From a virus (taxonomy: Duplodnaviria > Heunggongvirae > Uroviricota > Caudoviricetes): a stretch of DNA of 26,548 nucleotides. The stretch is from the IMG/VR virus record IMGVR_UViG_2681813161_000008. One strand, 5' to 3'. Below are positions 1 through 6,000 of the stretch, in pieces. The first letter of the stretch is position 1; every line of letters begins with the position of its first letter. Made by a program: the position numbers.

Positions 1-3000
1 TTACTGATAGTGTTTTATGTTCAGATAATGCCCGATGACCTTGTCATGCAGCTCCACCGATTTTGAGAACGACAGTGACTTCCGTCCCAGCCTTGCCAGA
101 TGTTGTCTCAGATTCAGATTATGTCGCTCAATGCGCTGAGTGTAACGCTTGCTGATAACGTGCAGCTTTCCCTTCAGGCGTGATTCATACAGCGGCCAGC
201 CATCCGTCATCCATACCACGACCTCAAAGGCCGACAGCAGGCTCAGAAGACGCTCCAGTGTGGCCAGAGTGCGTTCACCGAAGACGTGCGCCACAACCGT
301 CCTCCGTATCCTGTCATACGCGTAAAACAGCCAGCGCTGACGTGATTTAGCACCGACGTAGCCCCACTGTTCGTCCATTTCAGCGCAGACAATCACATCA
401 CTGCCCGGTTGTATGCGCGAGGTTACCGACTGCGGCCTGAGTTTTTTAAGTGACGTAAAACCGTGTTGAGGCCAACGCCCATAATGCGTGCACTGGCGCG
501 ACATCCGACGCCATTCATGGCCATATCAATGATTTTCTGGTGCGTACCGGGCTGAGAGGCGGTGTAAGTGAACTGTAGTTGCCATGTTTTACGGCAATGA
601 GAGCAGAGATAGCGCTGATGTCCGGCAGTGCTTTTACCGTTACGCACCACGCCTTCAGTAGCGGAGCAGGAAGGACATCTGATGGAAATGGAAGCCACGC
701 AAGCACCTTAAAATCACCATCATACACTAAATTAGTAAGTTGGCAGCATTACCCCATTGCTGGCATAAATTCAGTTTCGAATATTCAGTTAATTAAAGTT
801 CGTGTGCCATCTTGTCTTTTTCGGCACAAGCTGCACCGCAATATTTTCGTTTCTTTCTGGCAATCATGTTTCCATGCATATAAATAAGCTCGCCAGTAAA
901 AGCTTTTTCAGGTAAAAACTGTTTATTGCAGAGATGGTAATCACATTGTATTAAATCCGGGTCACCTTTTTGCTGGAGAATTTTTCTGATTCTCCACAGC
1001 CATTTTTTAATCCCGGTATGACTGATGGTCTGCCTGAGGTGTACTGGCAATAGCGGACACTACCATTTGTTCTTTTTTTAAGCAGCCATCTGATGATATT
1101 TTTCCCTGAAGGCTGCCGGGGAGATATTCCCCAGACGAGAGTGACGACGCTGACGATTGTAGAAAATCTCAATGTATTCCCGTATTACTGAGATGGCTTC
1201 ATCCCGGTTATTAAAACGATAGTGGCTCAGGCTCTCATTTTTCAGCGTTCCCCAGAAGCTTTCCATCGGAGCGTTGTCGTAACAGTGACCTTTACGCGAC
1301 ATTGATGTTTTCAGACCAGACTGCTCCTGTATGACCCGGTAATCGTATGCGCAGTACTGTGAACCTCGATCAGAGTGGTGGATTAGCCCGGCAGGTGGGC
1401 GCTGGCTCCTGAGCGCCATAAACAGGGCTTTACCTGTCAGCTCTTTTGTCATGCGCTCTCCCATGGCGTAGCCGACAATTTCGCACGTATAAACATCTTT
1501 GATGCCAGCGAGGTACAACCATCCCTCCTGTGTGGCAACATACGTCAGGTCCGCCACCCAGACCTGATTTGGTGCTGTAGGAGCGAACGTCTGGTTCAGC
1601 AGATTTGGCGCAACTGGCAGATTGTGGTTCGGGTTCGTAGTCGCTCTGAACTTGCGTTTCTGCTTACAGCGTAGCCTTAGCTCCTTACGAAGACGTGCCA
1701 GTCGGTCACGACCAACGATGATGCCATTCTCTGCCAGCTCCGTCTGGAGCCGCCGGGTTCCATATGTTTCGCGAGTGCGGATATGTGCCACCTTAATCTC
1801 CAGTTTTAGCCGCTCATCACTTTGTTTTCTGTCTGAGGGTTCATGCTGTACCCAGTTGTAATAACCGCTCCTGGATACACCAAATACCTGACACATCGCT
1901 TCAATGGGAAATTGTTGTCGCCATTGTTCGATTAACGCGTATTTTTCAGCGACTCCTGTGCAAAATACGCTGTTGCTTTTTTTAATATATCTCGCTCAAG
2001 GCGAGCTTCATTTAACGCCTTACGCAGTTGCAGAATTTCAGATTCCAGTTCAGCCACCGTGCGGGAACCAGGAGTACCGAGCCCTTTTCTGGCGGCGGTA
2101 ACCCATTGTCCTAAAGTGCCTTCAGGAAGGGATAATCGGGAAGCGCCTTCACTGATCGAAAGTTGATTTTCAAGAACCGTTCTGACAGCTTCGGCTTTGA
2201 ACTCTTTAGAGTAACGTTGGTTTTTTCTGCTCATTATTAGCTCCTTCTGATGCCATTCTATTTCAGGAAGGAGTGTCCGTTAAACTCAGGCTACCTCAAT
2301 CTTCTCTTATTTTGAAATACAGATTCGTCAGATAAGTCAGAAGCCCCAGAAGCAGACTTCCCAGCACACCAATCGCAGCCCACTGTGATGGACTGACCTG
2401 ATCCAACCACTGCAAAAACCAGTAGCCGGCACTGCCGGCGGAGGTGCCGTAGGCAATGCCCGTTGAAATTTTGTCCATGGATTTCATAGCCTCACCTCCG
2501 CAAATAACGGATGGCGTAGTTTTACACTGAGAAATGAAAGGGATTTGAAAAGAAAAAAACGCAAAAGCGGGCGAAACGATATATACAGTAAGGAAAGCAC
2601 TCTATCCAACAAACCACCCACAGTTAATCGGAATAAAAGCAGAGTGCTTATGAATGATCGCACGCCCGAAGGTTAGTATTTCTGCACAGCAATTTTGCAA
2701 AAAAAGGCGATCATTCATAACTTAAACGTCTTTCAGTCACTCCGGGATTTCCCATCATCGCAGACTGAAAGACTCTGACTGGAGCGGGCAGCGGGAATCG
2801 AACCCGCATCATCAGCTTGGAAGGCTGAGGTAATAGCCATTATACGATGCCCGCATATGGTGCCGACTACCGGAATCGAACTGGTGACCTACTGATTACA
2901 AGTCAGTTGCTCTGCCTGCTGAGCTAAGTCGGCGCTGGCCCACCACCGAGGACTCGAACCTCGCACCGTCAACTTAGAAGGTTGATGCTCTATCCGGATG

Positions 3001-6000
3001 AGCTAGTGGTGGTTGGTGGCCCTTGCTGGACTTGAACCAGCGACCTGGCGATTATGAGTCGCTCGCTCTGACCAACTGAGCTAAAGGGCCGGAGGCAGAA
3101 TAATAACCATATGTCATCACATCTGCAAACTCATCTGACCACCAGCACGTTTAACGTCCTGTGCCGTTTTTCAGGTATAAAAAAACCCGCATAAAGCGGG
3201 CTCTTTCAAATGTCCATGTGAAGTGGTCAACAAAAACTGGCCACCGAGTTAGAGTTTTTCCAGTATCGATTTTCCGATTCGTTTGGGGGTAACCCACCGT
3301 TATATTCGTGCGGTCTTAGTGCGCTGTAATATCCAACGATATAGTCCGTTATGGCGTGAGCTGCCTCGCTGGGTAATGCTGCCAACTTACTGATTTAGTG
3401 TATGATGGTGATTTTAAGGTGCTTGCGTGGCTTCCATTTCCATCAGATGTCCTTCCTGCTCCGCTACTGAAGGCGTGGTGCGTAACGGCAAAAGCACTGC
3501 CGGACATCAGCGCTATCTCTGCTCTCATTGCCGTAAAACATGGCAACTACAGTTCACTTACACCGCCTCTCAGCCCGGTACGCACCAGAAAATCATTGAT
3601 ATGGCCATGAATGGCGTCGGATGTCGCGCCAGTGCACGCATTATGGGCGTTGGCCTCAACACGGTTTTACGTCACTTAAAAAACTCAGGCCGCAGTCGGT
3701 AACCTCGCGCATACAACCGGGCAGTGATGTGATTGTCTGCGCTGAAATGGACGAACAGTGGGGCTACGTCGGTGCTAAATCACGTCAGCGCTGGCTGTTT
3801 TACGCGTATGACAGGATACGGAGGACGGTTGTGGCGCACGTCTTCGGTGAACGCACTCTGACCACACTGGAGCGTCTTCTGAGCCTGCTGTCGGCCTTTG
3901 AGGTCGTGGTATGGATGACGGATGGCTGGCCGCTGTATGAATCACGCCTGAAGGGAAAGCTGCACGTTATCAGCAAGCGTTACACTCAGCGCATTGAGCG
4001 ACATAATCTGAATCTGAGACAACATCTGGCAAGGCTGGGACGGAAGTCACTGTCGTTCTCAAAATCGGTGGAGCTGCATGACAAGGTCATCGGGCATTAT
4101 CTGAACATAAAACACTATCAGTAAGTTGGAGTCATTACCGCCTCGCTGAAGCTTACGTAACCCACCACCGGCATCCATTCGTTCTTCAGACTCCTGAAGA
4201 AGCGTTCCATTGGGCTGTTATCCCAGCAGTTTCCGCGCCGGCTCATACTCTGTCTGATCTGGTATCGCCACAATAACTGCCGGAACTGCCTGCTCGTATA
4301 ATGACTGCCCTGATCGCTGTGGAACATCACCCCGCCGGGCTTACCACGGGTTTCCCATGCCATTTCCAGCGCTTTCATGGTGAGCCTGCTGTCCGGCGAG
4401 AACGACATGGCCCAGCCCACTGGTTTTCTTGCGAACAGGTCGAGAACAACGGCGAGGTACGCCCAGCGCTTACCCGTCCAGATACAGGTCACATCACTGC
4501 ACCACACCTGATTTGGCTCGGTCACGGCGAACTGCCTTTCAAGGTAGTTAGGGATAGCAACATGTTCATGACCACCACGTTTATACCGGTGAGTCGGCTG
4601 CTGACAGCTGACCAGCCCCAGCTCTTTCATGAACCTGCCAGCAAGCCAGCGTCCCATCTGGTAGCCTCTCCGGGTTGCCATTGTGGCGATGCTTCTTGCT
4701 CCGGCCGAACCATGGCTGATGCCATGTAGCTCAAGTACCTGACTGCGTAATACAGCCCGTCTGCCGTCTGGTTTTTCAGGACGGTTTTTCCAGTATCTGT
4801 AGCTGCTGCGATGAACCCCGAACACTTGGCAGAGTGTGACCACAGGATAATGCGCTCTGAGTTTCCCGATTATCGAGAACTGTTCAGGGAGTCTGACATC
4901 AAGAGCGCGGTAGCCTTTTTTAATATTTCATTCTCCATTTCAATGCGTTGTAGCTTTTTCCTCAGCTTACGTATTTCGATTTGTTCTGGTGTTATCGGAG
5001 AGGCTTTTGGTGTTTTGCCCTGACGCTCATCACGCAGTTGTTTGACCCATCTTGTCATTGTGGAAAGGCCAACATCCATAGCTTTGGCGGCATCTGCCAC
5101 CGTGTATTTCTGGTCAACAACCAGTTGAGCGGATTCGCGTTTAAACTCTGCGCTAAAATTTCTTTTTTTCATTGGAGCACCTGTGTTGTTCTGAGGTGAG
5201 CATATCACCTCTGTTCAGGTGGCCAAATTCAGTGTGCCACTTCAGGTGCCGAACCTTCCTCCGGATATAATCTGTGATTCCCCAATCAACAGAACCAGAG
5301 GAGGTTCGGCATAAACATCAATGCACAACGACAGAATCGTCGGACGACCCACCACCGCTGAAATGTGCTTTCCGGTAAACGGCCTGAACTGCGTCATCAT
5401 GCGCATCAATTGCCGTACTCAACGCTTCCTGCGCCGCCAGTAATGCACGGCGTTCCAGGGTATCGAAGATACAGAGTCGGTGACGCAGCTCACGCGGAAG
5501 AATTGCCAGAACCGCAGGGATCAGTTTCTGAATTTTCTCCCTTTGCGCTTTCGTTTCACCTTTCAACCAACGGTGATAGATATTCTGCTGATTGTTCCAG
5601 TCCTTGCCTGGTACCAGAGGCAATTCGCCGCCCCCCTGCCGCAGATATTCTTCAGTAATTGCGTTAGCGACCCACGCCTGCCCTTTTTCGGCTGCCAGGG
5701 CTAACAGCACTGATTCGATGTGCTCATGCCTGATTTTCATGAATCACCTTCCCAGGTCGTTTTGCCTTACGATATTCGTCATAAACTTTGGGGTCGTACT
5801 GAAGTTCCCCGCCAGATGCCTCTTGCAGGCGCATCGCGCGACCTTCAGGAACCAGTTCCCCCCATGCAGCAATGCTTGCCAGCCTAACTCCTGCGGCATT
5901 GGCAAGCTTTGTTTTGCTGCCAAAAAACGCTATAGCATCAATTTTCAACATATCGAGCTCCTTAGATTTTCCTAAGGAAACTAGATCGTAGAGAAACCTA

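Follow-up and report, generated by a model that had tools for sequence, protein, structure and literature searches.

A four-tRNA unit with a predicted promoter of its own in the remnant late gene leader of a phage-21-like prophage

The region between the late regulator and the lysis genes is well described in phage 21, whose curated record runs from Q through the late promoter pR' with its Q-binding element, a terminator, tRNA-Asn and tRNA-Thr to the holin products S21-71 and S21-68, a signal-anchor-release (SAR) endolysin and the spanins. The Shiga toxin (Stx) phage 933W reportedly carries the tRNA genes ileZ-argN-argO downstream of Q. Asn and Thr tRNAs lie downstream of Q in SfI, Sf6, ST64T and P21 (PMC3636060), and minor-codon tRNAs that lie after Q and ahead of the lysis or toxin genes in Stx and Shigella phages are explained as a supplement for phage-favoured codons. 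The same slot between Q and the holin can hold a short structured RNA with a terminator of its own, as with STnc100 (RF02076)/PasD and PasA/PasC, and PasA, PasC and PasD1 adjoin holin-lysozyme operons. Cryptic lambdoid prophages broken by insertion sequences (IS) are also familiar, both in Shigella ipaH islands and in K-12, where DLP12 carries essD-rrrD-rzpD; they keep an S21-type holin and carry cargo such as ipaH. We describe here a remnant of 920 bp of phage DNA at positions 2299-3218 (minus strand) of IMG/VR virus record IMGVR_UViG_2681813161_000008, a stretch of 26,548 nucleotides to which we refer as the window. We read it, with a probability of roughly 0.8, as the fossil of the late gene leader of a lambdoid prophage that resembled phage 21 and lay in an ipaH island of Shigella type, with a tRNA unit that is most likely still transcribed and a holin gene that is a passenger.

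The remnant is flanked by IS911 (from 3219) and IS600 (1035-2298), and its elements lie on the minus strand in the order hairpin terminator with U7, tRNAs Ile2-CAT, Arg-TCT, Thr-TGT and Gly-TCC, and S21-type holin open reading frame (ORF). An original prediction for this DNA had recognised this as the order of a lambdoid late region, and both phage 21 and E. coli prophages that are 99-100% identical bear this out; the extent it gave, 2296-3218, is correct to the base. The 920 bp are 100% identical (over 919-920 nt, one base of the junction codon excepted) to part of an intact prophage of E. coli FDAARGOS_944 (locus L001), and 99.4% identical to the prophage of CFSAN029787 (L002) and to prophages of several other strains. 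In FDAARGOS_944 the order is a DUF1133/Q-like gene, an ORF6N gene, the same terminator, the same four tRNAs (named Ile, Arg, Thr and Gly by PGAP), a 71-residue class II holin, a hypothetical gene, lysozyme, Rz and terminase, and in CFSAN029787 a PF06530 Q gene lies immediately upstream of the homologous region with lysozyme and Rz downstream. The Q gene (PF06530) or Q-like gene (DUF1133) is found only in these intact relatives; no Q gene lies immediately upstream of the remnant, where IS911 adjoins at 3219. The composition, order and integrity of the remnant, its origin and its conservation are direct observations.

Relative to phage 21, the arrangement of terminator, tRNA genes and dual-start holin on one strand is shared, the holin is 97% identical over 63 residues, and the endolysin of the parental prophage is also SAR-type. 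The remnant differs in having no Q, pR', endolysin or spanins, in carrying tRNAs Ile2, Arg, Thr and Gly where phage 21 has Asn and Thr, and in a 292-nt structured spacer between tRNAs and holin that phage 21 does not possess; moreover, tR' abuts the first tRNA in phage 21, whereas the array of the remnant has a predicted promoter of its own. The arrays of Stx and Shigella phages likewise differ in composition, the remnant having a four-gene array orphaned from its phage. Among IS-eroded lambdoid prophages it is distinguished by a truncated holin without an endolysin, and by a tRNA operon that is the most intact unit. In the mechanism we propose, the genes for replication, nin and Q would have been lost to IS911 along with pR'/tR' and an ORF6N gene, while the loss of the final eight codons of the holin, of the SAR endolysin and of the spanins would be due to IS600.

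The four-tRNA cluster of the original prediction is confirmed by ARAGORN, which calls exactly four tRNA genes in the whole 26.5-kb window, all on the minus strand and contiguous at 2780-3090, and by Rfam model RF00005, which scores all of them at 56-70 bits (gathering score 29; E 4e-11 to 5e-15); all four encode their CCA 3' ends. The first tRNA has the anticodon CAT, and the ARAGORN label 'Met' rests on the anticodon only, homologues being named tRNA-Ile by PGAP. It is identical to K-12 ileX at 69 of 77 columns, including the entire anticodon stem-loop, with one compensated acceptor pair, so that it is an ileX-type tRNA-Ile2, predicted to read AUA, and does not have a Met body. The four tRNAs should therefore decode AUA, AGA, ACA and GGA, rare codons that all end in A, in agreement with the specificities originally assigned to them.

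Between the upstream terminator and the array, a consensus scan places a putative sigma-70-type promoter that ends 9 nt ahead of the 5' end of the first tRNA. When the upstream regions of 14 diverged arrays are aligned, mean column identity is 41%, yet the motif TTGCAx-17-TATyAT is kept in 13 of the 14, with TTGC and TA..AT invariant or nearly so. A conserved promoter in this position suggests that the array carries its own and is not simply Q-dependent, and with it the array would have no need of Q; the Q-dependent reading of the original prediction is thus not supported as such. Two further promoter candidates were rejected. One, TCGGCA-16-TATAAT at 2839-2866 (-), matches the consensus at 10 of 12 positions, but spans the 3' end of tRNA-Thr and the D-arm of tRNA-Gly and is probably a by-product of tRNA sequence. 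The other, an outward promoter from the IS911 end, has a -35-like TTGACC within the terminus without an acceptable -10 in the phage DNA, either by eye or by scan.

These elements would make up a self-contained unit of insulating terminator, sigma-70-type promoter, four tRNAs, a trailer RNA of about 215 nt with three hairpins, and a once-functional terminator that is now eroded (Table 1). The upstream terminator would insulate the tRNA operon against transcription from upstream, and the operon, having its own promoter, is most likely still transcribed in the Shigella host without a phage factor, where it would add to the minor-tRNA pools. Codon counts fit the usual idea of tRNA supplementation. 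Per 1000 codons, AUA, AGA, ACA and GGA occur at 11.6, 19.9, 14.9 and 5.0 in ipaH and at 7.4, 7.4, 16.4 and 17.1 in the prophage ORFs of the window, against 3.6, 0.6, 4.4 and 6.5 in a K-12 chromosomal sample; AGA is thus used roughly 30-fold more often in ipaH than in that sample, and AUA and ACA roughly threefold more often. The ACA bias of the window prophage is paralleled in phage SfI, where ACA stands at 17.3 against 7.1 in Sf301 (PMC3636060).

Several points nevertheless weigh against a tRNA unit that is both active and retained for use. The promoter is known only as a conserved consensus match; the K-12 codon baseline comprises 15 genes only; and GGA is not enriched in ipaH in the comparison of codon use with tRNA specificities that the original prediction had suggested. 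The host presumably has ileX-, argU-, thrU- and glyT-type genes of its own, and extra copies may be redundant. Finally, all of the genomes examined carry the remnant in identical form, and its retention could reflect recent common descent and not selection.

Table 1. Coordinates of the features of the late-leader remnant, its boundaries and the ipaH-type gene in the window.
Feature	Position	Strand	Basis and remarks
IS911	3219-5244	-	Upstream boundary; ends TGAAGTGGTCAAC... and ...GTGTGCCACTTCA; IS3-family orfA/orfB ORFs
Intrinsic terminator, GC-rich hairpin + U7	3178-3208	-	Folding free energy (dG) -18.7 kcal/mol
Sigma-70-type tRNA-array promoter (predicted), TTGCAG-17 nt-TATTAT	3100-3129	-	Consensus scan
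tRNA-Ile2, anticodon CAT (lysidine-AU), predicted to read AUA	3014-3090	-	ARAGORN; Rfam 70.5 bits; CCA encoded
tRNA-Arg TCT, reads AGA (array slot 2)	2936-3012	-	ARAGORN; Rfam 56.4 bits; CCA encoded
tRNA-Thr TGT, reads ACA	2858-2933	-	ARAGORN; Rfam 69.8 bits; CCA encoded
tRNA-Gly TCC, reads GGA/GGG	2780-2854	-	ARAGORN; Rfam 64.9 bits; CCA encoded
Hairpin H1	2728-2773	-	Consensus fold of 20 variants: 15 pairs, 4 changed on both sides
Structured-RNA core (H2 2648-2720, H3 2597-2647)	2592-2721	-	Covariance model and consensus fold
Eroded intrinsic terminator of the tRNA/structured-RNA unit, CGCCCGCUUUUGCG then U7	2548-2573	-	Fold dG -3.3
Truncated S21-type class II holin (pinholin) ORF, codons 1-63, with Shine-Dalgarno sequence	2299-2499	-	PF04971
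IS600	1035-2298	-	Downstream boundary; 1264 bp; ends as in other full copies
ipaH-type effector (LRR_TTSS + NEL E3 ligase)	24737-26548	-	Runs off the window end

The alternative that survives best is that the remnant is an inert fossil, with nothing in 2296-3218 either expressed or selected, and that it owes its survival to chance deletion endpoints in a young clade. The distribution of the remnant is consistent with this. NCBI lists the exact 63-residue holin, on 83 contigs, under the name 'MULTISPECIES: phage holin [Shigella]'; the carrier genomes that we compared were found through this exact truncated protein, and ten complete chromosomes, CP000036 included, have both junctions in common with 0-1 single-nucleotide polymorphism (SNP) in the remnant, leaving no substitution record of constraint. 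The window itself is identical to JWSL02000004 over 8.5 kb. There is no sequence variation among the carriers, and selection on any part of the remnant is not demonstrable. A search for the IS600/holin junction with one genome per species gave a single match, a 1380-bp contig of 'Streptomyces sp. UG1' (NZ_JBNGGG010000135.1, L014) with a coverage of 1.3; Streptomyces was rejected as a carrier, the contig being almost certainly Shigella/E. coli contamination and uninformative on distribution.

The boundaries also speak of haphazard rearrangement. The junction between holin and IS600 reads ...AGA GAA GAT|TGA GGTAGCC on the minus strand, such that the first three bases of IS600, the terminal TGA at 2296-2298, supply the holin stop codon, as had been predicted. 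The ends of this IS600 (TGAGGTGTACTGGCA...ACTCAGGCTACCTCA) are the same in two further full copies in the window (6836-8098 and 21546-22808) and, in parts, in a fourth. It is full length but without the 3-bp target duplication (gcc vs atc) that the two other full copies show (TAG and CAA), and is a genuine IS600 with one flank exchanged or deleted. IS911, whose transposase is oriented towards the phage remnant, has no 3-bp target duplication either (atg vs ggt); neither boundary element has one, and both boundaries are therefore the products of IS-mediated deletions or exchanges, and not of simple insertions. These mapped ends agree with the proposal that the Q side was replaced by IS911 and the endolysin side by IS600: only 63 of the 71 holin codons are left before IS600 begins, the endolysin and Rz being present in the intact relatives. 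The surrounding prophage is heavily degraded, containing IS1, four IS600, IS911 and an IS66-family element. We nonetheless consider an inert fossil unlikely, since the promoter, the four cloverleaves with their CCA ends and the trailer RNA are all intact and identical to those of the complete prophage, and since a sigma-70-type promoter would be independent of phage factors.

Some further observations concern the insertion sequences themselves. The fourth IS600 (9378-10058 and 11365-11955) is split by another IS3-family element at approximately 10099-11312, and IS911 is split by an IS1 at approximately 3372-4139 that is flanked by a 9-bp duplication, GCCTCGCTG. Two other contigs, L042 and L067, have an IS600 end (TGAGGTGTACTGGCA) inserted within H3 of the structured trailer RNA, an independent IS600 event in the same module. 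Beyond IS911 lie cro-like, YdaT-like and cI-like genes, and further on Rha/Ash, tail genes and ipaH; in its entirety the window is a single lambdoid prophage of the ipaH-island type, riddled with IS elements.

The tRNA-Gly gene and the start of the holin are separated by a 292-nt spacer (2488-2779), which was left unmentioned in the original prediction. Its fold is considerably more stable than that of shuffled sequences on the sense strand (z -4.07), but not so on the antisense strand (z -1.90), and between the window and phage 689R5 the spacer is more conserved than the holin coding sequence. A 19-mer taken from the spacer finds upwards of 120 prophage contigs in IMG/VR, among which there are 69 distinct variants with identities down to about 56%, and the counterpart in HK639 is 75% identical, with stems that are visibly compensated; structured-RNA homologues were collected at loci L003, L019 (HK639) and L020-L139. 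RNAalifold on 23 representatives yields the H2 and H3 domains with 41 pairs, 10 of which have changes on both sides. Cells of H2 and H3 are paired in 97.2% of cases, against 32-49% when the partners are slid by 1-3 columns, and the covariation score of 0.262 (0.177 in shuffles) is reached by none of 500 shuffles. A covariance model has a single match in the window, 2592-2721 (-), at 135 bits (E 6e-33). There are many G-U pairs on the sense strand, and the only antisense match of the model is weak (24 bits, at the Fels-1 locus). The spacer also contains small ORFs (59 residues sense, 43 antisense), but indels among homologues and paired compensatory changes favour an RNA and not a protein, and these were rejected.

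This trailer RNA has no Rfam match in permissive-threshold scans of the window and of four loci with diverged copies. Weak Trp_leader and isrK matches at 3177-3267 reflect only the terminator hairpin and IS911 sequence, and the STnc100 model RF02076 has no match in the window at E<=1. Identity with the Pas small RNAs (sRNAs) PasA, PasB and PasC was likewise discarded: a BLAST comparison made with these three from enteropathogenic E. coli (EPEC) E2348/69, with coordinates from PMC8550237 table S6, gave only chance matches of 8-16 nt. The putative trailer RNA is thus without similarity to STnc100 (by model) or to PasA/B/C (by BLAST), although it occupies the same slot; it also differs from PasA in being sense-strand and linked to a tRNA array, PasA being antisense to the late operon. 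Its copies precede lysis cassettes whose holin families are unrelated and follow various Q genes, whether or not tRNAs are present. It adjoins STnc100 in HK639 (L019), in Fels-1 (L140) and in one IMG/VR contig (L073); multiple STnc100 copies lie in these late leaders (L019 2754-2959; L140 773-986, 1187-1309 and 2310-2528; L073 6582-7118), some of them immediately beside the trailer RNA. The multiple copies suggest a cassette-like small-RNA array upstream of the lysis genes, and the lambdoid late leader resembles a chain of cassettes for small RNAs and tRNAs in which each has a terminator of its own and to which the trailer RNA apparently adds a further, uncatalogued one. In HK639 the structured RNA lies directly downstream of a tRNA-Gly remnant (L019 2412-2490), the 3' half of which is intact and the 5' half diverged; it is not called by ARAGORN, and as a query it is about 88% identical to E. 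coli chromosomal tRNA-Gly genes.

The trailer RNA itself might be the selected element, as a trans-acting sRNA that is co-transcribed with the tRNAs and freed by tRNA processing. The strand-specific structure with 10 and 4 compensatory pairs across diverged phages, the U-tailed terminator that normally follows, the shared late-leader slot with the Hfq-dependent sRNAs PasA/PasC/PasD and STnc100, and the association with unrelated holin families, which ties the RNA to no single lysis gene, are all consistent with such a role. For the Shigella remnant we regard it as doubtful, because erosion of the terminator in the window would leave the RNA without a defined 3' end, and because the hairpins could serve only to stabilise the tRNA transcript or to aid its processing.

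The nature of the upstream terminator bears on whether the remnant should be regarded as Q-dependent. A simple terminator scan missed this element, which is a 13-bp hairpin followed by U7 with a z-score of -3.67 and which none of 200 shuffles equals in dG. Hairpins of different sequence lie at the same position in CFSAN029787, 689R5, L034 and L113. In FDAARGOS_944 the retained terminator stands 90 nt after the ORF6N gene, and a single promoter-like site directly follows the Q-like gene, TTGACT-18-TATATT (L001 5087-5116), with a terminator 60 nt past it at L001 5178-5195 and the ORF6N gene next. Thus L001 5087-5920 contains an ORF6N-domain gene inserted between a Q-adjacent terminator and the terminator kept in the window, and the promoter-like site and the Q-adjacent terminator are likely a pR'/tR' pair, approximately 0.8 kb upstream of the retained terminator. 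With such a pair upstream of the ORF6N gene, the hairpin that was retained comes second among the late-leader terminators of the parental phage and is not tR' proper. The original designation as tR'-like is apt as regards position, in that phages without the ORF6N insert have a hairpin soon after Q, but not as regards identity. No part of pR' is kept in the window, where the phage DNA upstream of the hairpin amounts to only 10 nt (3209-3218).

The earlier reading, in which the remnant is Q-dependent, its terminator is tR', and the tRNAs and holin are silent without an antiterminated transcript, draws on the positional analogy to phage 21, where tR' abuts the tRNAs, and on CFSAN029787 and 689R5, where a terminator lies at the homologous position about 80-110 nt past the Q stop codon. 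The prophage that is 100% identical to the remnant has its Q-adjacent promoter and terminator 0.8 kb further upstream, with the ORF6N gene between, and a conserved promoter stands between the retained terminator and the tRNAs. We consider the Q-dependent reading quite unlikely on these grounds.

The holin ORF, including its stop codon, occupies 2296-2487 (-) and encodes 63 residues that start MKSM (MKSMDK..., identical to S21), preceded by the Shine-Dalgarno sequence GGAGGTGAGG at 2490-2499 (-). It matches PF04971, 'Bacteriophage P21 holin S', over profile positions 1-59 of 64 with an E-value of 1.8e-33 (114.7 bits against a cut-off of 26), and the alignment to S21 proposed in the original prediction shows 61 of 63 residues identical (97%); identity to an intact 71-residue homologue is 100% over 63 residues. 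The tail present in intact homologues and missing here is KRKAARGE, and the dual start, M1 for the antiholin and M4 for the holin, both products of which are annotated in the phage 21 record, is kept. The parental lysozyme of FDAARGOS_944 is a PF00959 enzyme with a SAR-type N-terminus (YGLSAAVLALIAAGASAP), and pinholin is therefore the right class for the holin; the SAR endolysin partner itself is absent from the window. The picture of a holin that keeps its dual start and both transmembrane domains (TMDs) and loses only a few charged C-terminal residues requires some qualification. The Kyte-Doolittle mean over 19 residues peaks at 1.75 for TMD2 (centres at about 40-51) and at only 0.64 for TMD1, so that plain hydropathy is strong for TMD2 only and the assignment of two TMDs rests on the 61/63 identity to S21. 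The topology of S21 is known from the literature, and a weak TMD1 is a known SAR-type property of it; a topology prediction intended to reject the ORF for lacking two transmembrane helices could therefore misfire. A hairpin inside the ORF (2425-2439), reported by the simple terminator scan, is regarded as chance.

Truncation need not have inactivated the protein. C-terminal truncations of S21-68 in one-residue steps still form pores down to K56 (bioRxiv 10.1101/2021.04.20.440580), and the remnant holin corresponds to residues 1-60 of S21-68. By analogy it should be pore-competent if made, in agreement with the original suggestion that it could still be membrane-active. A competent holin that nonetheless persists harmlessly suggests low expression, and the gene is probably silent or weakly expressed. 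Without Q-dependent transcription, the one evident route to its expression would be read-through that starts at the tRNA promoter and crosses the eroded trailer terminator. That terminator, with its dG of -3.3, is no better than shuffles in the window, as against -11.5 in 689R5 and -15.3 in HK639, and most copies have a good intrinsic terminator with a dG of -11.5 to -17. The stem in the window has eroded from GCGGG to GCGTT, the rarest allele, seen in 7 of 73 window-type copies, the others being GCGGGC (24), GCGGGT (20) and GCGGT (22). Across loci L001, L002, L003 and L025-L068 the alleles form a stepwise series from strong (GCGGGC/GCGGGT) through medium (GCGGT) to weak (GCGTT), which looks like a T-run expanding into the stem. 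The GCGTT allele also occurs in the intact prophages of FDAARGOS_944 and CFSAN029787, and the erosion is therefore older than the decay of the prophage.

That the holin is functional cargo, a membrane-depolarising toxin fed by read-through and acting for example in abortive infection or stress-induced dormancy, is very improbable: the retained Shine-Dalgarno sequence, dual start and presumed TMDs, the pore formation of S21-68 truncated to residue 56 and the weakest of the trailer-terminator alleles in the window are compatible with it, but that allele is shared with intact prophages that have a full lysis cassette (L001, L002) and so did not originate in the remnant, the truncation, caused by an IS end, has the look of an accident, ten chromosomes differing by 0-1 SNP give no sign of selection, and the retained M1-start antiholin form would damp activity. 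In the reading that we prefer, of a late-leader fossil with a tRNA unit still transcribed, the holin gene would be a passenger and not a selected function.

Two side observations concern the composition of the array in related phages. The tRNA in slot 2 was compared between the window (2936-3012) and 13 other loci (L003, L024, L026, L034, L037, L041, L053, L071, L092, L096, L103, L113 and L124), and has a body that is homologous in all of them, its acceptor, D and T arms being conserved, but a hypervariable anticodon loop. The anticodons include Arg TCT, Lys TTT, Phe AAA/GAA and a 'stop' TTA, and there are also shortened loops of 5-6 nt that ARAGORN does not name; decay could account for this variation, as could an arms race with anticodon nucleases. 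The final tRNA of some near-identical arrays is annotated as Val (TAC) instead of Gly (TCC), as in E. coli FDAARGOS_943 (H32), RMDEC332 (H40) and L113 (2795-2866), an apparent second anticodon switch within the same module.

As an object the locus is routine, an already annotated kind of prophage fossil that arose by ordinary prophage decay: it is well known that IS-eroded lambdoid prophages carry post-Q tRNAs and S21-type holins, and NCBI already lists the truncated protein. The three-hairpin trailer RNA, absent from Rfam, is the sole item beyond the known. A bolder and doubtful proposition is that the Shigella locus is an autonomous, constitutive operon of four minor tRNAs and a new RNA family that would tune A/T-rich virulence genes such as ipaH, and that the slot-2 loop might record an arms race with anticodon nucleases. 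The remnant nonetheless offers a natural dissection experiment, in which the phage is gone and the tRNA unit with its predicted promoter is intact and fixed in a Shigella lineage, and the idea that phage tRNAs help foreign genes becomes testable at this unit. The trailer RNA, widespread in enterobacterial prophages, with good covariation and no Rfam family, is a candidate late-leader prophage sRNA, and alongside it the variable anticodon loop of the slot-2 tRNA in related phages deserves attention.

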